A stretch of 48,422 nt of DNA from Escherichia phage ETEP102, in sequence record OR979723.1; one strand, written 5' to 3'. This document shows, one piece after another, positions 35,173-46,985 of this stretch (the stretch's first letter is position 1; every line of letters begins with the position of its first letter). The notes below the pieces were generated by a model. It did not search any database, was not told the origin of the DNA, and saw only the letters and a program-made list of their open reading frames with translations. Both the position numbers and the translations under genes were made by a program.

Positions 35173-37275
35173 ATGGCTATGCGCATTAAATCCATCAAAA
35201 AACAGATAGAGGAACTCGGTCCTCAGAAGATAAAAGAAATTCAGGATAAGTTTACCTTTGGTGACATGGTTCCGTATGAGTACCAGTGCGTGATGTATGA
35301 TGAGATCGGCAAGCGCATTGCTCGCTATAAGCATCCATTCATTGTTAAGGCTTCCGTATCTGCTGGTAAAACAATTGGCTTTGCCATGATCGCGTCTCGA
35401 GTTAAAGAGATGGGACTTTCAATGATGATACTTGCGCGCCAGGGCGACATCGTCGCTCAGGATAGCGAGGAGATCTCAAACTTCGGCGTTCCAAACTCTG
35501 TTTACTGTGCTGGCCTGAATACAAAATCCGCATACTTCCCTATAGTTGTAGGATCGGAAGGTTCAGTGGCGAACGGTCTATTCAAGGCTCTGGGTGACTT
35601 TACTCCAATGGTGCTGGGTATTGATGAATGTCACCAGGTAGACTGGGAAGACCTTGCTGCAGCCATCGGCAATGAAGAAACGATTGAGATGATGCTAACT
35701 GAAAAGGATGAGCGAGTATTCATTGATTACCCTAAAAATCGCGATGGTTATGTCAATGGTTATCTTAATGGCGTAGAGGTTGGCGCCCAGGTAATGGATA
35801 AGCAATTGCTAATCAGCCGGAAGACTGGCGAGCCTGTGTTGGGAACAAAGCGAAGCCAATACACGATCATAATCACTGAGCTAATGAGGCGCTGCAAAGA
35901 GAAGAATGGCAAGGAATTAAGGATATTCGGGATGACTGGTTCTGAGTTCAGAGGAACAGCTCCAATCGTAGTTGACAACCCAAAGCTACCTGGATTCTGG
36001 CGTGAGCAGGTGACTAATATTGACACAAATTACCTTATTGAGTTCGGATCTGTGGTTCCGACTGTTTTTGGTAGTGTCGGTGATGCTGGTTATGATCTTG
36101 ATGAGTTCAAGGCATCAAGTCAGGACGGCACGGCTGACTTCAGCCAGAAAGATATGAAGGCGATGGAAAAGAAAATCCATGACAACGCCAGCATGACCAA
36201 GCGAATCATGGAAATGGTTGTTGAGGAGGCAAAGAAGCGAAACGGGGTTCTTATTACATGCTCAGGGCAGCGCCACTGCAAAGAGGCAGCGAGCTATCTG
36301 CCACCTGACGCCACCTATGAGATCATCACCGAGAAGACAAACACCAAAAAGCGACAAGCAATACTGGAAGCGGCTAACCGTGGTGAAATTAAATACATTT
36401 TCCAGGTTATAGCGCTAACTACTGGAGTTAACGTTCCGTTTTGGGATTTCTCAGTCATCCTGCGTAAGATTGGTTCTCTTACACTACTGATCCAGCTTCT
36501 CGGTCGCGGAATGCGATTGCTTAAACCGTGGCAAAAAGCAATGGGTATGGTTAAGGAAGATCACCTTGTGTGGGATTTCGCGGGTTGCATGGACGAGTTA
36601 GGTCAGTTATACTTTGACCCCATCCTTGAGGAATCACAGTATCAGCGCCGCTTTGACGGTAAGAAAGAACCGAAGAAATGTGAGTTGTGCGGAACTGAGA
36701 ACAGTTTTTACGCTCGCCGTTGCATTCACAGAGACGAAAACGGCAATCGTTGTGAGTATTTCTGGAAGTCTCGCGTATGTGAAGACCAGATTGATGATCG
36801 CACTGGCGAAGTGCTCGCTAAGGGTTGCGGAACTGAGAATGACGTAGTTGCTAGAATATGCCGCTGCTGTGACGTGAGCTTGAAAGACCCCAATGACAAT
36901 CTGACTGGTAAGGCTTACACAAAAAACGACTGGTGCACAGTTAATAGCTTTGAAGTGACGCTGACGAGAAATCAGACTGGTATTCTTTATCGTTACGACC
37001 TTACCGACTCGATGGGGGTTAACTTCATTGCTTATGAAAAATTTTTCCCTCAATCAACGGCGCAGGTATGCCACACGATATGGAAACAAAAAGGTGTATT
37101 GCCTCATGTGCATGACAGCAAGATCGCAAAGTTAATGGCAGCTTACAGAAGTGCGAAAATGATTTTAAACAACGCTCACCACATAGCACATCCGGTGCGG
37201 GTAACACACCGAAAAAATGCAAAAGGTGATGATATTATTTCACGTAAAGATTTCGGATTGGATGGTAACTTATGA
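35173..37275 (+). CDS. SF2 DEAD/DEAH-box helicase with C-terminal Cys-rich domain
   Basis: Walker A SAGKT, Walker B GIDECHQ, C-terminal CELCG...CIHRD...CRCC cysteine clusters. Confidence 0.75.
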   Translation: MAMRIKSIKKQIEELGPQKIKEIQDKFTFGDMVPYEYQCVMYDEIGKRIARYKHPFIVKASVSAGKTIGFAMIASRVKEMGLSMMILARQGDIVAQDSEEISNFGVPNSVYCAGLNTKSAYFPIVVGSEGSVANGLFKALGDFTPMVLGIDECHQVDWEDLAAAIGNEETIEMMLTEKDERVFIDYPKNRDGYVNGYLNGVEVGAQVMDKQLLISRKTGEPVLGTKRSQYTIIITELMRRCKEKNGKELRIFGMTGSEFRGTAPIVVDNPKLPGFWREQVTNIDTNYLIEFGSVVPTVFGSVGDAGYDLDEFKASSQDGTADFSQKDMKAMEKKIHDNASMTKRIMEMVVEEAKKRNGVLITCSGQRHCKEAASYLPPDATYEIITEKTNTKKRQAILEAANRGEIKYIFQVIALTTGVNVPFWDFSVILRKIGSLTLLIQLLGRGMRLLKPWQKAMGMVKEDHLVWDFAGCMDELGQLYFDPILEESQYQRRFDGKKEPKKCELCGTENSFYARRCIHRDENGNRCEYFWKSRVCEDQIDDRTGEVLAKGCGTENDVVARICRCCDVSLKDPNDNLTGKAYTKNDWCTVNSFEVTLTRNQTGILYRYDLTDSMGVNFIAYEKFFPQSTAQVCHTIWKQKGVLPHVHDSKIAKLMAAYRSAKMILNNAHHIAHPVRVTHRKNAKGDDIISRKDFGLDGNL

Positions 37276-37769
37276 TTATAAACTTTGTCGAATACAAAGA
37301 TGGTGGGCTCTACTGGACTAAACCGTCAGGGCCAAGGGCTAGAGTTAGCATTGGATCAAGGGTAGGTCACGTAAATCGTGAAGGCTACAGGGTATTCAAG
37401 TTCGAAGGCGCTCACCTAAAGGAGCATAGGGTGATATGGTATATACATAATGGTGAAATACCAGAAGGGATGGAGGTTGATCACATAAATCACGAAAGGG
37501 ATGATAATAGAATTTCAAACTTAAGACTAGTTAGCAGATCCGACAACATGAAAAATACATCAATAAGAAAGTCGAATAGTAGCGGATTTACTGGTGTTAG
37601 TTGGTGCTCAACCAGTAAAAAGTGGAAGGCTCAGATACAAGTAAACGGAAAGAAAATATCGTTAGGTTACTTTAGTGATATTGATTTAGCTATAAGTGCA
37701 AGAACCGAGGCGAATATTAAATATAACTTCCACGACAATCATGGTGGCAAAAATGGCTATAAAAGATAA
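37272..37769 (+). CDS. HNH homing endonuclease
   Basis: EVDHINHERDDNRISNLR core and TGVSW...WKAQIQVNGK tail, paralogous to 8236-8748; ATGA overlap with helicase stop. Confidence 0.8.
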   Translation: MIINFVEYKDGGLYWTKPSGPRARVSIGSRVGHVNREGYRVFKFEGAHLKEHRVIWYIHNGEIPEGMEVDHINHERDDNRISNLRLVSRSDNMKNTSIRKSNSSGFTGVSWCSTSKKWKAQIQVNGKKISLGYFSDIDLAISARTEANIKYNFHDNHGGKNGYKR

Positions 37770-38250: not shown

Positions 38251-38523
38251 ATGAAAAAGTCAATCATCGCTTTACTGGCAGTTTTGGCAATGGCAGGTTG
38301 TGCTGAAGACACTAAATTCTACGATTGCGGTAGCGAATCTTTCACAGTAACTAAGTCTCAAATTGTGTCAGATAAAGGCGTTATCATTGAACGTGAAGGC
38401 GATCACTACGAACTGCAAACTTTCTTGGGAAAGGCAATTTACAACGTGACTGAAAGTCAGGTAAACGTTAGCGTTGGCGGGTTCGTTGCTGTCAATAACT
38501 GCAAAGTAACTGAGGTTGAATAA
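38251..38523 (+). CDS. putative lipoprotein (90 aa)
   Basis: MKKSIIALLAVLAMAGC signal peptide plus lipobox. Confidence 0.5.
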   Translation: MKKSIIALLAVLAMAGCAEDTKFYDCGSESFTVTKSQIVSDKGVIIEREGDHYELQTFLGKAIYNVTESQVNVSVGGFVAVNNCKVTEVE

Positions 38524-38658: not shown

Positions 38659-39387
38659 ATGATCGAATCAGACGACAAATATACTCATGACGAATTCGTT
38701 AGCTTTGAACAGATTGAGCGTGAGAACTTCGTGGCAAATGCCCTCGTTCCTGGTTACGGGCACTACCAAGCAGTTAAGCCTGACACATTTTATCATGTAA
38801 CTGGAAAACGATACGCCGGAAGTAAGACACCTGACGCAGTAAGAGATCTTTGGGCCACCGACAGGGAGCTGATCTCATGGATGGAGTCGCGTTATGGAAA
38901 GTATGACATCGACGCCGCCGCCAGCGCTAACAATGCGGTTTGCGAAAAGTTCTATAGCGAGCAATTGAACTGCCTTAAGATCTGGTGGGGCAGAAATAAG
39001 CACATATGGCTTAACCCTCCTTACTCACATCCAGATCCTTTCGTTAAGAAAGCGATTGAGCAGATGGAGCACGGGAACCAGATTGACATGCTCTTGCCTG
39101 GCGATAACTCGACGGCGTGGTTCGCTGAGGCGAGACGCAATGCGGCTGAGATCATCTGGATTGAGGCAGAGATAACAGAAATTGACCAGCAGGAATACTG
39201 CCGAACAGGACGACTAGCTTTCATATCTGGACTGGCCGGAAAGCCTGTGGATGGAAACAATAAAGGATCTGTCATCTTCGTCATGCGAAAGCTGAAAGAA
39301 GGTGAGGAACAGAAAACGACGTATGTTAGCGTCTCTGAGATTTGCCCTGGCGTAAGCCGAAAGAAACCACGTAAGCGGAGTGTTTAA
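38659..39387 (+). CDS. dam: DNA N6-adenine methyltransferase (Dam-like)
   Basis: Catalytic NPPY motif (WLNPPYS) and context typical of phage Dam methylases. Confidence 0.8.
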   Translation: MIESDDKYTHDEFVSFEQIERENFVANALVPGYGHYQAVKPDTFYHVTGKRYAGSKTPDAVRDLWATDRELISWMESRYGKYDIDAAASANNAVCEKFYSEQLNCLKIWWGRNKHIWLNPPYSHPDPFVKKAIEQMEHGNQIDMLLPGDNSTAWFAEARRNAAEIIWIEAEITEIDQQEYCRTGRLAFISGLAGKPVDGNNKGSVIFVMRKLKEGEEQKTTYVSVSEICPGVSRKKPRKRSV

Positions 39388-39388
39388 G

Positions 39389-39619
39389 ATGGAAAAGTTG
39401 CAATTTGATTTAACTGAGCAGGCTCAGTTCCTTTTGTTTCGCGGTCTTGTTTGCACGGCTCTTACAAAGGCTGGGTTCAAGGGTGATGCTTGGGTATTCT
39501 CAAATCTTGACATGTCATTTGAAGAGGTCCAAGGCACTCCATTTGAATCATGGTCAAGATCAATAGCAAAAGATCTCGCAGACTATAAGCGCGATTGCCC
39601 TGAGGATTTTCACGAATAG
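39389..39619 (+). CDS. hypothetical protein (76 aa)
   Basis: ATG 39389 with GGAG upstream. Confidence 0.4.
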   Translation: MEKLQFDLTEQAQFLLFRGLVCTALTKAGFKGDAWVFSNLDMSFEEVQGTPFESWSRSIAKDLADYKRDCPEDFHE

Positions 39620-39634
39620 CACGAATTTCTAAAC
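39616..39634 (+). promoter_or_regulatory. ATAGCACGAATTTCTAAAC motif copy
   Basis: Overlaps TAG stop; 22 nt to TGGTATACT (39651-39659) in hairpin ATACCAGC/GCTGGTAT; ATG 39690. Confidence 0.5.
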
Positions 39635-39689
39635 ATACCAGCCGCTGTGCTGGTATACTTCTTTCACGCCAACGAAACGAGGAATCAAC

Positions 39690-39923
39690 ATGAAAAAGCA
39701 ACCTTTTGTTACTCACAACCACGCAGCATACCGTAACAAGGTTTTATTTCCGCACCTGCTTCGCCTGGCTAACGATAGCGCAAAGGACGCGATCGCACTT
39801 GGTAAGGACGGCGGTCTGGACGAGGTTATTGCGGTGACTTATCTCAAGGGCGCTTATGGTCACTTGCCAGTTGCTGACTATCAGGCTATGTCGGGGAGCT
39901 TTGACATTTATGGTAACTGTTGA
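39690..39923 (+). CDS. hypothetical protein (77 aa)
   Basis: ORF with ACGAGGAA RBS. Confidence 0.4.
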   Translation: MKKQPFVTHNHAAYRNKVLFPHLLRLANDSAKDAIALGKDGGLDEVIAVTYLKGAYGHLPVADYQAMSGSFDIYGNC

Positions 39924-40155
39924 GGTTGGGCGTCAGGCAGTGTGGACGCACTGCAAAGAAGCCGGAATAAGTGAAGACATCGCGCTTATATCCAAGTATT
40001 TTGATATCAAAGACATATGCGTCATATTCAACGGTAAGATGACGTATATACATGAAAGGCCGCGTAAGCTGATCAGAGTTCCTGCAACTCCTGTGAAGAT
40101 TGACTACAAGGCTTGCATTCAGGCGACAAAAGACGCCGCGAGGAGATACAAGTGA
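39910..40155 (+). CDS. hypothetical protein (81 aa)
   Basis: ATG 39910 overlapping upstream gene end (track start 39856). Confidence 0.35.
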   Translation: MVTVEVGRQAVWTHCKEAGISEDIALISKYFDIKDICVIFNGKMTYIHERPRKLIRVPATPVKIDYKACIQATKDAARRYK

Positions 40156-40403
40156 ATTTACCAGGGCTTGATTTTGACGCTGGAATTTATCCTACGTGTA
40201 GCAATAATGATGAGACGTTCGCAATTATCCATTTCTCTGACTGGTTGCCTTCAGACTTCGAAGATGTGCCATGTTCGCGCGGCGGCGGGTATCGACTGAT
40301 GTATTTCAGCCCGTCAACTGGTATGATGGTTCCAAGCGAATCAGAGATAGCAGGCGAGGCGGTTGAGCCAAATACTTTGACAACATGGTTGAAAAAGATT
40401 TGA
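40113..40403 (+). CDS. hypothetical protein; start uncertain (GTG 40152 possible)
   Basis: ORF in track; possible GTGA-coupled start. Confidence 0.3.
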   Translation: MHSGDKRRREEIQVNLPGLDFDAGIYPTCSNNDETFAIIHFSDWLPSDFEDVPCSRGGGYRLMYFSPSTGMMVPSESEIAGEAVEPNTLTTWLKKI

Positions 40404-40474
40404 TGCGCTGCTTAATTGCTGTATTATTGCCGCCGATAATTGGTTTTATTATCATCTACTTAATAACACGATAA
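40403..40474 (+). CDS. very small hydrophobic peptide (23 aa)
   Basis: TGATG-coupled ORF MRCLIAVLLPPIIGFIIIYLITR in the 80-nt gap before the next gene. Confidence 0.25.
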   Translation: MRCLIAVLLPPIIGFIIIYLITR

Positions 40475-40484
40475 GGATTTAAAA

Positions 40485-41627
40485 ATGGCTATTCAGAAAA
40501 TTAGTGACGAACAATTCATTGCCGAGCGCGAAGCTGGTAAAACTCTACGTCAAATAGCTCAAGAATACGGTATGAATATTCGAACTGTAGAGCAGCGTTC
40601 AAGTCGCCTCGCGAAGCGTGGAGAGTTTCACGGAAACAAGCACGTAAGCGTACATGTTCCAGAAGGGTTTCAGGTTAAAGGTACATCGACAATGATTCGA
40701 GCCGATGGCTCAGAGGTTGTGCGGTGGGTAAAGACAGATCAGGACAAGGAGAAGTTAGCCGCCATGATGGATGCCGCGATTGAAGCATTCTGTGAAGAAA
40801 TCCCACGCGCAGATCCTCAGCCTATTCTTGGCGAGCCTAACTATGATGAGAATCTCCTGGCACTGTATCCAGTGTTCGATCTACACATCGGCGCAATGGC
40901 ACACAAGCATGAGTGCGGTGAAAACTACAGCACCGACATCTCTGAGAAAGTCCTCAAGAACTTCTTTGATTACTCGGTTGGCGTAGCTCCTAAAGCAAAG
41001 AAAGCCGTATTGCTAATCGGTGGTGACTTCCTTCACTCTGATGGCCTGGACGCTGTAACGCCCGCAAGCGGTCACGTACTGGATCAGGATAGTCGATACG
41101 CTAAGCTCGTGCATGTTGCAATTCGTTCCGTCCGCCGCGCTGTGGCAAAAATGCTGGATAAACACGAGGATGTCGAAATTCAGATCATTGAGGGCAATCA
41201 TGATCAGGCGGGAATGATTTGGTTGCGTGCTGCCATGGCTGCATACTTCGAAGATGAATCGCGCGTAAAAGTTGACGTATCCCCAATGATTCTCCACCGA
41301 ACCAAGTGGGGTAAGACGCTACTCGGATACACTCATGGTCACACCATGAAGAAGGCTGACACTCGACTGGCGGCGATGGCAACAGATTTCCGTGAGGAGT
41401 TCGGGACCAGTAAATATATCTATACGCATAGCGGCCATTGGCACCATCAGACGATCACGGAAGGAACTTTGGGAATTGATGAGGTTCACGGTCAACTAGG
41501 AGCAAAAGACGCATATGCGGCTCGCGGCGGATGGCGCTCTTATCGACAGGCAGCTGTGATCTTGTATTCAAAAGAGTTCGGTGAGGTTGGTCGATTCGTT
41601 TACCGTCCAGAGATGAGTGATATTTGA
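40485..41627 (+). CDS. calcineurin-like metallophosphoesterase with N-terminal HTH domain
   Basis: Phosphoesterase motifs DLHIG, GGDFLHSD, EGNHDQ, GHTH, GHWHH; N-terminal HTH-like GKTLRQIAQEYGMNIRTVEQ. Confidence 0.6.
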   Translation: MAIQKISDEQFIAEREAGKTLRQIAQEYGMNIRTVEQRSSRLAKRGEFHGNKHVSVHVPEGFQVKGTSTMIRADGSEVVRWVKTDQDKEKLAAMMDAAIEAFCEEIPRADPQPILGEPNYDENLLALYPVFDLHIGAMAHKHECGENYSTDISEKVLKNFFDYSVGVAPKAKKAVLLIGGDFLHSDGLDAVTPASGHVLDQDSRYAKLVHVAIRSVRRAVAKMLDKHEDVEIQIIEGNHDQAGMIWLRAAMAAYFEDESRVKVDVSPMILHRTKWGKTLLGYTHGHTMKKADTRLAAMATDFREEFGTSKYIYTHSGHWHHQTITEGTLGIDEVHGQLGAKDAYAARGGWRSYRQAAVILYSKEFGEVGRFVYRPEMSDI

Positions 41628-41645
41628 TAGCACTTTTTGCCTAAC
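41627..41645 (+). promoter_or_regulatory. ATAGCACTTTTTGCCTAAC motif copy
   Basis: Follows TGA stop; 22 nt to TATATT (41665-41670) in hairpin TAGCGCC/GGCGCTA; ATG 41698. Confidence 0.45.
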
Positions 41646-41697
41646 ATGTAGCGCCGATTGGCGCTATATTTACATCTCACTATCAGAGGATTCAATC

Positions 41698-41871
41698 ATG
41701 GTTAAATTGTTTTGCATTAAGAATACATCTAAGACACTTCCTTTCACTGTAAACAGTCCATACATCGGTGAGTATCAGGGTGACGGATACTACAAGATTT
41801 ATGGTGACGATATGACGTGGATTTTAGCGCCGATTAATGGTTCGCTTGTTGAATTTATTATTGCAGATTAG
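41698..41871 (+). CDS. small hypothetical protein (57 aa)
   Basis: ATG 41698 with AGAGGA upstream (track start 41617). Confidence 0.4.
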   Translation: MVKLFCIKNTSKTLPFTVNSPYIGEYQGDGYYKIYGDDMTWILAPINGSLVEFIIAD

Positions 41872-41897
41872 CGTATCCAAAACATAGCGTTACAAGC

Positions 41898-41923
41898 GGG
41901 GAGCCTTTTGGCTCCCCTTTTTT
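41898..41923 (+). terminator. rho-independent terminator
   Basis: GGGGAGCC-TTTT-GGCTCCCC then TTTTTT. Confidence 0.7.
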
Positions 41924-42002
41924 ATGCTTCTTTTCCGAGCGACGATAATGTATCATGTTTTTACTAACTTAATATTGACAAACAAAATAAAAGGCGGTTC
42001 AC

Positions 42003-42218
42003 ATGAGAGAGGTAATCAACGCTGCTACAGCGTCAACTGGCGGAGCTGCGGTAACTGGCGCAGCAACTGGTCAAATGACTATAGCAATAATCAGCCTTAT
42101 CGCTTTAATAATTTTTGGTGCGTGGGGGGCTTACTGGAAGTTTAAGGATAGCCAGGCGATTCGGCGCGCTCTTGAATCAGGAGACTTAAAAACAGCAATC
42201 AATATAAGGAGTAAGTAA
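42003..42218 (+). CDS. putative holin
   Basis: 71 aa, one hydrophobic helix MTIAIISLIALIIFGAWGAYW and charged C-terminus; immediately upstream of endolysin. Confidence 0.55.
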   Translation: MREVINAATASTGGAAVTGAATGQMTIAIISLIALIIFGAWGAYWKFKDSQAIRRALESGDLKTAINIRSK

Positions 42219-42704
42219 ATGAAGCAGAAGCTGTTAATTAGCGCGGCGACAGCTGCGGCAATATACATCGCAGCACCGCTTATTGAGCTTGTTGAGGGTG
42301 TGGAGAACAGACCTTACATTGACATTGCTGGGGTGAAAACCGTCTGCGCTGGGATCACTGGCCCAGACGTAGTTTGGGGTAAAACTTACAGTAACAGGGA
42401 GTGCCGGAGCCTGCTGGAGAAACACATTCAGATTCATGTTAAGCATGTTCAGAACGCCGTCACCTACCCAATTGCACCAGAGACAATGGCGGCTTTAATC
42501 AGTTTTAGCTACAATGTTGGCGGCTCAGCGATGAGGAAATCTACTGCCGTTAAGTTAATTAACCAGGGTAAGATTGAGCAGGGTTGCAAGGCTCTCGGGA
42601 TGTGGACAAAGGCTACCGTTAATGGCAAGAAGGTTGTCGTTAAGGGGTTAGTGAATCGCAGGAATGAGGAGATTAAGTTATGTTTAAGTGGATTGCAGCG
42701 TTAG
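42219..42704 (+). CDS. SAR endolysin (lysozyme-like)
   Basis: N-terminal signal-anchor-release-like segment LLISAATAAAIYIAAPLI then E-x8-D-x5-T catalytic triad ELVEGVENRPYIDIAGVKT. Confidence 0.8.
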   Translation: MKQKLLISAATAAAIYIAAPLIELVEGVENRPYIDIAGVKTVCAGITGPDVVWGKTYSNRECRSLLEKHIQIHVKHVQNAVTYPIAPETMAALISFSYNVGGSAMRKSTAVKLINQGKIEQGCKALGMWTKATVNGKKVVVKGLVNRRNEEIKLCLSGLQR

Positions 42705-43069
42705 TAATGTGCATGGCTTTATCTGGGTGCTCAGCAACATCTGCGCTGACTGGTTTAATTGGCAGCAAGCCAGAAATTAGCGCGCAGGCTGGGGCCGAGA
42801 ACGTGAAACAAACGGTAGGCGTTACCGGAAAGGTTGATAAGTCAAACGACAACGACACCAATATCAAAGACTCAAAGGTAGGAAAGGTTGATACGTCAAG
42901 CGGGAAGTCTGTCAGCACATCAAGCATCAAGGCTGACACCATCATCGCTGATAAGATTGAGATCAGGAATGAGGAGGTAGGTGGAAGAATTGCATTTGGA
43001 CTTGCTTTAATTCTAATTAGCCTATTGCTTTTCTCGTTCACGATATGGACTACTTTTCGCAAAAAATAA
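42680..43069 (+). CDS. unimolecular spanin (T1 gp11-like)
   Basis: N-terminal lipoprotein signal with lipobox LSGC and C-terminal TM helix IAFGLALILISLLLFSF; overlaps endolysin 3' end. Confidence 0.65.
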   Translation: MFKWIAALVMCMALSGCSATSALTGLIGSKPEISAQAGAENVKQTVGVTGKVDKSNDNDTNIKDSKVGKVDTSSGKSVSTSSIKADTIIADKIEIRNEEVGGRIAFGLALILISLLLFSFTIWTTFRKK

Positions 43070-43071
43070 AA

Positions 43072-43095
43072 GGAGCCGAAAGGCTCCATTTTTTT
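43072..43095. terminator. bidirectional rho-independent terminator
   Basis: GGAGCC-GAAA-GGCTCC flanked by A-run and T-run between convergent operons. Confidence 0.7.
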
Positions 43096-43288
43096 ATCCA
43101 AATATTTGCACAGGCAGCAACAATTCACCTTCATTATTGCATAGAGTATGCTCATCACGTCGTCCGGCGCGCATGGATGAGTTAAGCATTGAAGGAAGGG
43201 CTTGGTTAAGCCAGTCCTCACTGATACCATTCTCAGAACTGCATCTGATTATCGCGTCGATTACGACCTGGCTTTCCGAATAACTCAT
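43094..43288 (-). CDS. possible overlapping small ORF (64 aa)
   Basis: ORF in track overlapping the last 56 nt of upstream gene in another frame; weak RBS. Confidence 0.2.
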   Translation of the reverse strand: MSYSESQVVIDAIIRCSSENGISEDWLNQALPSMLNSSMRAGRRDEHTLCNNEGELLLPVQIFG

Positions 43289-43607
43289 TATCGCTCATCT
43301 TCTCTATGTTCATCATCTCACATGTATAGCGATCACTCTCACCGCCATAGCACCTGAAATGAAATTCAAACGGCCTTTTTTGCGCCCCTTTGGACCAGTA
43401 CCAGTTATTAACGCCGTCTAGGTATCCCTCACCCATACACCTTGCTATGAACTCCTTTGATGATGATGAGGCGAAGTAGCGAGGCGTAACTCCAGCAGAC
43501 TTTGCCAGTCGTTCGCACTCCCTATGCTTGTATATGAATACCGCCAGGTGCTGACGGTTGAATTTTTCATAGCCTTCGCAAAAACGGTACAGATCCAGAA
43601 GAAACAT
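43233..43607 (-). CDS. hypothetical protein (124 aa)
   Basis: ORF starting 2 nt after the HNH stop. Confidence 0.45.
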   Translation of the reverse strand: MFLLDLYRFCEGYEKFNRQHLAVFIYKHRECERLAKSAGVTPRYFASSSSKEFIARCMGEGYLDGVNNWYWSKGAQKRPFEFHFRCYGGESDRYTCEMMNIEKMSDNELFGKPGRNRRDNQMQF

Positions 43608-43609
43608 GA

Positions 43610-44134
43610 TTAGCGCCCGTGGTTATGGTGGAATTTAAGCCTTGCCCTAGCATCAATCACGGCCTGGCAGGCATCATCAAACAGGTAAAAAGTTCCTAGT
43701 GCAATTCTTTTACCGCTCAGGGATATTCTGGCCTTGAACTTCCCGTTCTTTTCAATCGTAACGCCAGGGAATCCGCTGGTGTTATTCTTATATACACTTT
43801 TGTTTTTTGAGTTATCTTGAGCCGATACAAGCCTGAGATTTACTCGTCTATTATCCATTCTATTATGATTTATGTGGTCAATCTGCATCCCCTTCGGTAT
43901 TTCACCCTCTCAAATATTCCATATTACAACGTGATTTGTCAGCCTCTTACCACCATAATCGAAACGCCTATAGCCACCTCTTGACTTATTGCCGCAATAG
44001 TTACCTTCTATCGCGGTTGGGTTTATTGTCCTAAGCCAGACTAAATCAATACCATCATAACCAATGTCAGGATAGCAATCGTGGGTTAACATATACCTTG
44101 TCTCCAATTGTGCAGGTGTAATATTTCTCATCAA
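43610..44134 (-). pseudogene. HNH homing endonuclease interrupted by in-frame TGA (43910-43912)
   Basis: Track ORFs 43910-44134 and 43610-43888 are in the same frame; joined reading ...HVVIWNI-stop-EGEIPKGMQIDHINHNRMDNRRVNLR matches intact paralog ...HRVIWYIHNGEIPEGMEVDHINHERDDNRISNLR. Confidence 0.6.
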
Positions 44135-45650
44135 GCATTGGCAGTAAGTGATCTTTAATCTTTGTCATTATCCCGGCCTGAGATTCGAATGGCTTAACCT
44201 TACGCGCCGCTTCATATAGGGATCGGACACCTACAACGCCTTTCCCGTTCTTGCCTTGCTTGATCAGGATGTCAATCAGCTTGTTCATCTCAGCATGGTC
44301 GCCAGCATGACCAGCAGCGTTTGCAGATGACAGATAAGTCTTACTCAGTTCCTGGAACATAATTACCGCTTCCTGCATTGTGTCAAGCTCAATCTCTCTG
44401 GACTTCTGCGGACTCCCGCCATTGGGATTAAACCAGTTACGCACAGTGTGAAGAACAGCAGCAATCCTGATGGCCTGCTTATCGAACTTACCCAACGCGC
44501 CGCGCAACATTGTGTGTGAATACTTCCCGCCGTCCGCAAGGTGAGGCTCCATATCCTGACGCGCACGGTTGAGATATTTCATCGCCGACGTGCTCACTGT
44601 CAGGTTGACTTCGTGTTCGCTCATGATCTCATGGACCAGACGGAAGTAGTCCGCCTTGAGTCCGCCATCAATCGGCTCGTATGTTGATTCGCCTTTTTCG
44701 TCAACGAATACACGCTCGCCAAGGAATGACTTCTCACGCACAAGCAAGAAACGTTCTGACACACCGATACCACGCGCACCAGCATTCATGATCGCGTTGA
44801 TTGTTTCATCCTGTGCAATTACAGAGATGCAACCCATCGCAATAAAGCTCATGTTATTGTCTGCGTTCGCACGCGCGATAGATACGTTACCAGCATCCCA
44901 TGCTTTCAGCACAAGCTCGCTGTTCGTTTTCTTTGAACCGTCACCATAGGTCATGCCTAAAAGTGAGTTCACGCTCGTCGCTTCATCCGAGATCACAGAG
45001 AAGTTGCCCTGGCGGTTGTTGATTCTCGCAAGACCTTCCGGCGTGGTGTCTGATACGGGGAACACGATGTCACAAAGGCGTTCCAGTTTTTCTTCCAGTT
45101 CTTCTTTTTCCTCAAACAGCGCCGCCATGTCAGATGGTGATTTCTCCTGCTTCATCTCCTTGGATAGAGCGGAAAGCTTAGCCATAATCTTCTTGCGGTC
45201 ACGCCTTCGGATCTCGTTGAGTCGCTCAGTCTCGGCGATCATCGGGGCCAGTGAAAGTGAGTTGATAGCTGATTTACCCGTCGATGGTGGCTGACTGGTT
45301 ACGACGTACAGCGCGGTAGGCTGTTGTGTTCCGTGATACTCAACCGTAAATCGTCCAAGCATCGCAGCAGAGATACATCCCAGGAAGTGCATATAAGCAG
45401 ATGACTCGGGGAACTGGACTGAGCGAGCAGCGTTGCTCGATAGTTTACCAACGACATCATGATCGTTTCCCAGGGAGATGACGGGATATTTGTCACCGCC
45501 TGAGTCAATCTCTGTAGGAGCTTTCCAGAATGACTGGCTCTGCCTGTATCCGTTGGCATTGATGGCGACGCGCAGAGGCGGGAGGTTATCGGCGGCGGCG
45601 ACAGCCATAACCTGATCAATTGACAATTTATCTTCGTTGAAATCAAACAT
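44067..45650 (-). CDS. P-loop ATPase, putative replicative primase-helicase C-terminal-type (DUF3987-like)
   Basis: Walker A-like SQPPSTGKSA; 527 aa; AAGGAG RBS; family name from recollection only. Confidence 0.5.
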   Translation of the reverse strand: MFDFNEDKLSIDQVMAVAAADNLPPLRVAINANGYRQSQSFWKAPTEIDSGGDKYPVISLGNDHDVVGKLSSNAARSVQFPESSAYMHFLGCISAAMLGRFTVEYHGTQQPTALYVVTSQPPSTGKSAINSLSLAPMIAETERLNEIRRRDRKKIMAKLSALSKEMKQEKSPSDMAALFEEKEELEEKLERLCDIVFPVSDTTPEGLARINNRQGNFSVISDEATSVNSLLGMTYGDGSKKTNSELVLKAWDAGNVSIARANADNNMSFIAMGCISVIAQDETINAIMNAGARGIGVSERFLLVREKSFLGERVFVDEKGESTYEPIDGGLKADYFRLVHEIMSEHEVNLTVSTSAMKYLNRARQDMEPHLADGGKYSHTMLRGALGKFDKQAIRIAAVLHTVRNWFNPNGGSPQKSREIELDTMQEAVIMFQELSKTYLSSANAAGHAGDHAEMNKLIDILIKQGKNGKGVVGVRSLYEAARKVKPFESQAGIMTKIKDHLLPMLDEKYYTCTIGDKVYVNPRLLS

Positions 45651-45720
45651 TAATTTTACTCCTTAGTGGTGCGCTAATGTTAACGCACCTATATTAAATC
45701 CGACCACTAATAAATGCTAC

Positions 45721-46074
45721 TTATTTGTACGCCGCTTCAAATTTATAAGTTTCGCAAATGGTATTGAATCCGACCTCATCATCTCGGTAAATCTGCCACG
45801 CAAAGCCTTCTTCGTCAAAGATATACCCAGCGTTACTTCCCAGACCTGCGTGCATATCAACCTGGTATCGCTTGCCGTTCTTGAAACTCTTCTCCACTGG
45901 CGAATTGTGGTTAATTTTTGTAACGTAAAGTGTTTTGGTCTTGATGTATCTGCCTTTGATACTCAGGTTGACCCACTTACCATCGATCTTGACCTGTTCA
46001 AATCCATTCTTGCTGACGCGAGCTTTCAGGAGGCGATTGGCGGAGGTAACGAAGTTTTTAGTGGTTATTGTCAT
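45721..46074 (-). CDS. hypothetical protein (117 aa)
   Basis: ORF downstream of motif/hexamer/leader module on minus strand. Confidence 0.45.
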   Translation of the reverse strand: MTITTKNFVTSANRLLKARVSKNGFEQVKIDGKWVNLSIKGRYIKTKTLYVTKINHNSPVEKSFKNGKRYQVDMHAGLGSNAGYIFDEEGFAWQIYRDDEVGFNTICETYKFEAAYK

Positions 46075-46137
46075 TTTGATTTCCTTTATGTGTTTCGTTT
46101 CGATGAGATGAATATACAGGAAAAGCCCAGAATGGCT

Positions 46138-46158
46138 TTAGCAATTAGTGCTATTTTA
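46138..46158 (-). promoter_or_regulatory. ATAGCACTAATTGCTAAA motif copy (minus orientation)
   Basis: Minus strand: follows TAA of methyltransferase gene; 22 nt to TATATT; leader CATCGAAACGAAAC; ATG 46074. Confidence 0.45.
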
Positions 46159-46830
46159 GCTGTTGGCGAGGTATACGGCACGGGCGAACCCGCGCGGGGT
46201 TAGAGAGCGAAACTGCTTGGTCTTTGCTGACTTACCTCCAAGGAAGCGCCAACCCCAAAAGAAACCAATGTTGATGGGGCCAGGCTTCTTAACTGGCTCA
46301 ATAAATCCGTTACCATGCCAGATGCAGGTCTTTTTTGTATAACCGTCGTATTTCGGCATTTTATCGTGATAAGGCATATCGCCAGCCTTCATGAGTCCGC
46401 CGTACTCGTGAGGGTTAAAGTAAAAATCAGGCTTACGCCATAGCGTTGACAGTTTGCCTACCGGATTCTCAACCATCCATGGAGCGTCAAAGTGATTTCC
46501 AACCTCCTCCACCAGCTTTGCATTAGCCAAGGCGTAAGCAAGCTCATCTTCGCTGCGGTCGTGCTGAGATCCTGACTGAGAAAACAGCGTGCAGTCAGGG
46601 AATCCGATAACCATTTGTGCCGGAGGTATTCCGAACAATTCGCACTTCGTTATGAAATCCTTATCAATCCACATATTGACATAGTGAATGTTCTCATGCT
46701 GCATCTTGACTTGATACTCGCCATGATTACCGGAGTCAGCATTAAAGCAGTAAACGGTGTGCCCGTTCTCAGCCCATGGGAGTCCAGCGATACCGGAACC
46801 GTCAAACATGCAGTAAATTACCTTTTTCAT
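46156..46830 (-). CDS. DNA cytosine-5 methyltransferase-like protein
   Basis: Motif I-like MFDGSGIAG, motif IV-like GFPDCTLFS (PC dipeptide), motif VI-like MVENPVG; short (224 aa). Confidence 0.45.
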   Translation of the reverse strand: MKKVIYCMFDGSGIAGLPWAENGHTVYCFNADSGNHGEYQVKMQHENIHYVNMWIDKDFITKCELFGIPPAQMVIGFPDCTLFSQSGSQHDRSEDELAYALANAKLVEEVGNHFDAPWMVENPVGKLSTLWRKPDFYFNPHEYGGLMKAGDMPYHDKMPKYDGYTKKTCIWHGNGFIEPVKKPGPINIGFFWGWRFLGGKSAKTKQFRSLTPRGFARAVYLANS

Positions 46831-46985
46831 TTCTTCATTGCCTTCTTGATTGCTTTCTGTGTGATTTCGAAACTGCTTTGCAGGTCTTCAACTTGCGCGG
46901 ATGTGATCCATGGATACCATCCTTTACCCGACATCTTCGCTATCGTGTCATTATCGTAATAGTTCAGATCTGAAGGTTTAAGCAT
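46827..46985 (-). CDS. small hypothetical protein (52 aa)
   Basis: ATG with GAGGTG 5 nt upstream; stop overlaps methyltransferase ATG (ATGA). Confidence 0.35.
   Translation of the reverse strand: MLKPSDLNYYDNDTIAKMSGKGWYPWITSAQVEDLQSSFEITQKAIKKAMKK

Follow-up and report, generated by a model that had tools for sequence, protein, structure and literature searches.

The DNA analyzed here is a stretch of 48,422 nucleotides from Escherichia phage ETEP102 (sequence record OR979723.1), which we refer to in its entirety as the window. It derives from a Drexlerviridae (T1-like) phage whose nearest relatives are the Nouzillyvirus phages XT34, TH21, TH30, and ESCO41, with about 86 to 87% nucleotide identity across the region studied. 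Two open reading frames (ORFs) are the subject of this work: 38659..39387 on the plus strand, encoding a T1-type phage Dam N6-adenine DNA methyltransferase of 242 amino acids (aa), and 46156..46830 on the minus strand, encoding a compact Dcm-like C5-cytosine DNA methyltransferase of 224 aa. An earlier note on this DNA had proposed two methyltransferases of different specificity classes; both ORFs are present at these coordinates, and the proposal held for a Dam-type N6-methyladenine enzyme and a short C5-methyltransferase-like protein. Rather than forming one operon, the genes occupy opposite strands and belong to transcription units that converge, and the two units are separated by a lysis cassette and a candidate bidirectional terminator at 43072-43087. 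No third methyltransferase-like motif set was found in any other ORF of the window. Neither gene is adjoined by a nuclease partner in the window, in ESCO41, or in one prophage copy, a chromosomal copy of the C5-like gene that adjoins the integrase of a lambdoid-type prophage; both methyltransferases are orphans, without a cognate restriction enzyme. We consider it highly probable that the window belongs to a T1-like phage with two unlinked orphan methyltransferases, a Dam that makes G6mATC (GATC methylated at N6 of adenine) and a compact C5 enzyme that is self-sufficient.

The Dam assignment was supported by hidden Markov model (HMM) scores far above their cut-offs. The ORF matched PF05869 at 1.3e-58 (197.8 bits; curated cut-off, 28.1), the NCBIfam model TIGR01712, "phage N-6-adenine-methyltransferase," at 4e-53 (179.3 bits; curated cut-off, 97.05), and phrog_111 at 1.5e-77. 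The NPPY catalytic motif named in the earlier note was recovered at aa 119-122 (39013..39024, plus strand), and a GAGG ribosome-binding site is positioned 10 nucleotides before the ATG. Phage T1 has a syntenic Dam (ST20, YP_003925.1) that is 67% identical to the window protein over 221 aa (E 2e-116) and in which NPPY and the surrounding block are conserved. The two genes occupy the same slot, with a VRR-NUC gene on one side and an SbcD-like exonuclease gene and the lysis cassette on the other, whereas the window protein is 5 aa longer and its first 22 residues, at the N terminus, fall outside the alignment. It has been shown that T1 DNA from a dam- host stays DpnI sensitive, i.e., GATC methylated, that in such a host a CRISPR-made deletion of T1 dam leaves GATC unmethylated in DpnI and MboI digests, and that host Dam modifies T1 DNA just partially (PMC10470545). 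The window contains 198 GATC sites, and by analogy with T1 its Dam very probably introduces G6mATC into the phage DNA as it replicates. A T1-type Dam gene is ordinary for Drexlerviridae.

The 224-aa protein has motifs I, IV, VI, VIII, and IX of C5-methyltransferases on one chain and in the canonical order, i.e., VIII and IX in addition to the I, IV, and VI that had been recognized previously. On the minus strand, motif I (FDGSG, aa 9-13, 46792..46806) corresponds to the S-adenosylmethionine (AdoMet)-binding loop, motif IV (FPDC, aa 77-80, 46591..46602; FPDCT at aa 77-81) contains the presumed catalytic nucleophile C80, motif VI is ENPVG (aa 121-125, 46456..46470), the equivalent of motif VIII is KKT (aa 166-168, 46327..46335), and motif IX is RSLTPR (aa 208-213, 46192..46209). 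Motifs I, IV, VI, VIII, and IX start at residues 93, 176, 224, 274, and 400 of E. coli Dcm and at residues 9, 78, 121, 166, and 208 here. The spacings are similar up to motif VIII (I-IV, 69 aa versus 83 in Dcm; IV-VI, 43 versus 48; VI-VIII, 45 versus 50), whereas VIII-IX is 42 aa instead of 126. A sizeable target recognition domain (TRD) is therefore lacking, in substance as the earlier note had stated, and in its place lies a reduced variable region (aa 169-207, 46210..46326) that includes an FWGW sequence at aa 191-194. The chain stops 11 aa past motif IX, and there is no motif X (GN(S/A)V).

The residue ahead of the catalytic Cys is Asp and not the Pro of the canonical Pro-Cys pair. In a profile alignment to M.HaeIII, FPDC fell opposite GPPC, FDGSG on FSGAG, and ENP on ENV; the position of FPDC opposite GPPC indicates that the PDC sequence, already noticed earlier, is a real motif IV variant. 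When 229 family members are aligned, the position preceding the Cys is occupied by D in 100 of them, by P in 96, by S in 14, by E in 8, and by V in 8, and a regular-expression tally over 270 retrieved sequences gave D in 104, P in 94, S in 15, E in 9, and V in 8. Across 92 diverse members, C80, P123, P140, Y164, K166, T168, W171, and P179 are invariant, and conservation reaches 90% or more at F77, P78, T81, G87, E121, N122, R208, S209, and P212, which suggests that the active site is functional. Asp-variant members retain the FWGW sequence with 92% conservation or more, whereas 78 to 88% of Pro-variant members have gaps there. Asp before the Cys, as judged from these alignments, is a maintained subfamily state.

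The protein belongs to a large family. It matched phrog_757, "DNA methyltransferase," at 4.1e-78 over residues 1-223, and the match is full length for an HMM whose proteins have a single-domain length of about 200 to 260 aa. Homologs numbered 1,290 proteins at E values of 1e-3 or less, mostly of about 215 to 250 aa among the best 120 of the 1,290, and the family comprises 1,888 representatives at 50% identity; the phage records that contain it number 1,488, with Escherichia, Klebsiella, Salmonella, Vibrio, Campylobacter, and others as hosts. The authors of the BASEL collection annotated it as "Dcm-like C5 cytosine methyltransferase." An AlphaFold2 model of the window protein was confident (predicted local distance difference test, 84.5; predicted template modeling score, 0.85), and its best Foldseek matches in the PDB were the catalytic domains of DNMT3B and DNMT3A (E 2e-7 to 1e-5); M.HhaI was also matched. 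Structural alignments to C5-methyltransferases span about 174 to 190 residues, whereas generic Rossmann methyltransferases of similar Z score align over only about 130. By its predicted structure, the 224-aa protein is a genuine, strongly reduced C5-methyltransferase fold. The ratio of nonsynonymous to synonymous substitution rates (dN/dS) of the gene is about 0.03 versus TH30 and about 0.05 versus ESCO41, values that indicate purifying selection and are read with dS near saturation.

Evidence that such a protein can methylate DNA comes from an ortholog in phage K42. Every mutant of this phage isolated as an escaper of retron Ec86 had a change in one gene of 711 bp, "dcm" (Wang et al., bioRxiv 10.1101/2023.08.16.553469). 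K42 Dcm alone was reported to raise 5-methylcytosine (5mC) on the multicopy single-stranded DNA (msDNA) of the retron in E. coli, as determined by mass spectrometry coupled to liquid chromatography (LC-MS), and to make Ec86-carrying cells sick, while K42 Dcm C82A/E128A/K175A/K176A gave neither the 5mC rise nor Ec86 triggering; mutation of the CCTGG site in the msDNA abolished defense (bioRxiv 10.1101/2023.08.16.553469). The K42/KarlJaspers type is represented in our comparison by the ortholog of phage JK16, which shares 45% identity with the window protein (E 1e-66) and whose 711-bp gene has C82, E128, K175, and K176 at exactly the positions published for K42 Dcm. These four residues align with C80, E121, K166, and K167 of the window protein. 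We infer that the Asp-Cys allele in the window is active.

Several points weigh against the reading of two active, self-sufficient orphan enzymes. A search of Pfam and NCBIfam with the C5 protein gave no match, with none to PF00145 even at E values up to 1 (6 of 30 close relatives matched PF00145 weakly, at best 3.1e-6), and family profiles run against solved structures reached M.HaeIII only weakly (E 1 and 0.14). The profile link to M.HaeIII is too weak alone, and thus the C5 assignment rests on the fold and the motifs; a phmmer search against PDB chains likewise found no sequence match. The 5mC formation and Ec86 triggering were reported for K42 Dcm, a PPC protein, whereas the window has the PDC-type FPDCT in place of the canonical FPPCT of the K42/JK16 type. 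The variable segment, aa 174-205, is just 34% identical between the window and JK16 proteins, compared with about 75% for motifs VIII and IX. Further points concern the target. The CCWGG specificity of K42 Dcm was inferred from msDNA CCTGG-site mutants and not from methylome mapping (bioRxiv 10.1101/2023.08.16.553469). Strain MG1655, the host of the K42 Dcm experiments, carries an annotated dcm gene, and the empty-vector control in MG1655 had low msDNA 5mC (bioRxiv 10.1101/2023.08.16.553469). The window has 95 CCWGG sites at an observed-to-expected ratio of 0.78, which is not discriminating because T1, without the gene, has a ratio of 0.82. Finally, in the BASEL study the methyltransferase content of Drexlerviridae showed no relation to their resistance to restriction.

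Given these points, we weighed whether the 224-aa protein works at all and whether it works alone, since the earlier note had suggested that it may be inactive, may need a partner, or may act on a different substrate. A dead C5-methyltransferase relic or a DNA-binding pseudoenzyme, having exchanged Pro for Asp and lost the TRD and motif X, would be consistent with the missing PF00145 and NCBIfam matches, with DC in place of PC, and with a VIII-IX interval of merely 42 aa in a chain that ends shortly after motif IX. However, Cys, ENP, and K-x-T are invariant or nearly so across a diverse family, Asp is the residue in nearly half of the aligned members, the dN/dS is about 0.03, the K42 ortholog, just as compact, has activity, and phage PeterMerian (Bas05) retains the FPDCT allele; we regard a dead enzyme as very improbable. 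Dependence on a partner for target recognition, either a separate TRD polypeptide as in split enzymes or a DNMT3L-like product of a neighboring small ORF, is suggested by the top structural matches, since DNMT3A and DNMT3B work as oligomers with DNMT3L, by the coupling of the gene to an upstream 52-aa ORF, and by the conserved small flanking ORFs (phrog_4548, phrog_4448, and phrog_2684). Homo-oligomerization was not counted as a partner. Plasmid-expressed K42 Dcm alone was nonetheless enough for msDNA methylation and Ec86 triggering, the flanking genes vary among phages with the family, and motifs I to IX are on a single chain, which together leave this explanation with hardly any probability. 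The split-enzyme model had been a candidate for the leading idea and was rejected because the K42 enzyme works alone. An inactive C5 enzyme, or one needing a phage-encoded partner, is thus unlikely because of the family conservation (C80 invariant and E121 nearly so), the dN/dS, and the active, 45%-identical K42 ortholog, and the earlier suggestion, that of a different substrate included, is not favored.

The remaining alternative accepts an active C5 enzyme and questions its target: other or relaxed specificity, a preference for hairpins or single-stranded DNA, or transfer of a group other than methyl. We consider this possible, although we lean against it. In its favor, the variable region is minimal, differs in sequence from the K42 type, and contains the subfamily-specific FWGW. 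Moreover, MG1655 has an annotated dcm and yet had low msDNA 5mC with the empty vector, while the phage enzyme raised 5mC. Similarity to E. coli Dcm was limited as well; an hhalign comparison of the family profile with the single E. coli Dcm sequence aligned motif IV only (probability, 1.9%), a result that is uninformative without a canonical-family alignment. In contrast, LC-MS found 5mC on the msDNA with K42 Dcm, loss of the CCTGG site abolished defense, and no carboxy-S-adenosylmethionine synthesis gene or other hypermodification gene lies near the C5 gene. Site statistics were dropped as a proxy for specificity: GATC and CCWGG are mildly under-represented in the window, equally so in T1, which is without the C5 gene. 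As for direct methylome or specificity determinations for the family, the literature search yielded the work on retron Ec86 and otherwise only mentions at the level of annotation. CCWGG is a candidate target of the window enzyme and should be called nothing stronger. A narrower proposal is that the Asp-Cys/FWGW subfamily recognizes DNA unconventionally, as a homodimer, through hairpin or single-stranded structure, or with a short or relaxed specificity. We find this doubtful; if true, the target set would differ from that of host Dcm, and this would account both for the rise in msDNA 5mC with the phage enzyme and for the low level in the MG1655 empty-vector control.

Under the reading that we prefer, of two active orphan methyltransferases, both enzymes would be expressed early or in the middle of infection and would modify replicating phage DNA. 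The C5 enzyme would do so on its own, with C80 attacking as the nucleophile, the flipped cytosine kept in position by E121 together with K166/K167, and a methyl group moving from AdoMet to C5. Both enzymes would outdo those of the host in the speed and completeness with which phage DNA is marked. The benefit would be the masking of restriction sites overlapping their motifs, for Dam also a larger burst size, and perhaps help in replication or packaging, and the cost would be a methylation visible to methylation-triggered defenses, such as retron Ec86. The earlier note went further and read the pair as broad anti-restriction by self-methylation, which is overstated. Each enzyme can mask only sites with its own motif, the BASEL comparison showed no such link, and in T1 delta-dam the burst size falls by about 40% even when no restriction system is present (PMC10470545). 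Apart from this, a comparison of observed counts with Markov expectations over the whole window found several 6-bp palindromes to be strongly avoided: GAGCTC (0 versus 7.3), GGTACC (0 versus 1.5), GAATTC (3 versus 11.5), RCCGGY (3 versus 13.4), and CTGCAG (4 versus 11.4). This avoidance suggests a restriction pressure that is relieved by neither methyltransferase.

The surroundings of the two genes differ. In the rightward unit, the order is HNH endonuclease, VRR-NUC, small lipoprotein, Dam, small ORFs, SbcD-like exonuclease, holin, endolysin, and spanin. The ORF just upstream of Dam (38251-38523, plus strand, 90 aa) has a lipoprotein signal and lipobox (MKKSIIALLAVLAMAGC); its product, a small predicted lipoprotein, may have a role in superinfection exclusion. 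The terminator candidate is a GC-rich hairpin, GGAGCC-GAAA-GGCTCC, with flanking T-runs on both strands, and resembles a bidirectional terminator placed where the lysis operon and the replication operon converge. The C5-like gene is within the leftward early/replication unit, upstream of a DUF3987 helicase gene. Its start overlaps the stop of the upstream 52-aa ORF (46827-46985, minus strand; the conserved phrog_4548) as ATGA, an overlap implying that the two are translationally coupled. Between the helicase gene and the ORF at 43233-43607 is an insertion at 43610-44134 (minus strand), an HNH_3/AP2-type homing endonuclease gene with one in-frame stop (HVVIWNI*EGEIPKGMQIDHINH), where ESCO41 has nothing. 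The stop could reflect a pseudogene, a sequencing error, or read-through; an intact paralog of the endonuclease is found at 37272-37769 (plus strand).

The layout of ESCO41 is that of the window, and both of its genes are annotated "DNA methyltransferase." No homolog of the C5-like gene was found in phage T1, so the C5-like gene is an accessory gene of a variable early region. Two Warwickvirus phages have different C5 alleles at the same position (JK16 L002:2995-3705 and PeterMerian L005:2938-3678, compared with window 46156-46830): the JK16 protein is the FPPCT type and the PeterMerian protein is FPDCT and 64% identical to the window protein. Together with the absence from T1, this implies that alleles appear to be exchanged between phage lineages. 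The compact fold also occurs as one domain of two very large uncultured-phage proteins in BFVD, A0A6J5SE15 (1397 aa) and A0A6J5NPY6 (1126 aa), with 23 to 26% identity and template modeling (TM) scores of about 0.6; for one of the two, the annotation includes a helicase/UvrB N-terminal domain.

In Drexlerviridae it is common for a T1-type Dam and a short C5 enzyme to occur together, and the combination is already annotated. The pair in the window is thus real but ordinary, and orthologs of both enzymes have experimental support. What follows is foremost a correction of annotation: the 224-aa gene encodes a compact Dcm-like C5-cytosine methyltransferase despite the Pfam and NCBIfam miss, and it is not to be presumed dead. 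Phages with this gene are predicted to be sensed by methylation-triggered defenses, such as retron Ec86, and may contain 5mC with consequences for restriction mapping, nanopore basecalling, and host range engineering. How a target is chosen with so little TRD, i.e., with a variable region of about 40 residues, is of moderate interest for methyltransferase enzymologists and is not specific to this window.

Finally, we compared the C5 protein with known enzymes. The K42/KarlJaspers-type Dcm is a member of this compact family, and its gene has an identical slot upstream of the DUF3987 helicase gene; its FPPCT motif and its different variable region, together with the FWGW of the window subfamily, imply that its specificity is not transferable to the window protein. 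In E. coli Dcm and the M.EcoRII type, motifs I, IV, VI, and VIII are ordered and spaced as in the window protein, and motif IX is very similar (RRLTPRE in E. coli Dcm, RSLTPRG here). However, E. coli Dcm is 472 aa long, its 92-aa N-terminal extension and motif X (GNSV) are absent from the window protein, and the latter has K-K-T where Dcm has Q-x-R-x-R. The catalytic domains of DNMT3A and DNMT3B, in turn, are eukaryotic and larger (about 280 aa) and oligomerize with DNMT3L, and they are 11 to 17% identical to the window protein with TM scores of about 0.5. Sequence and structure comparison gave no evidence of common descent with them beyond the C5-methyltransferase superfamily.

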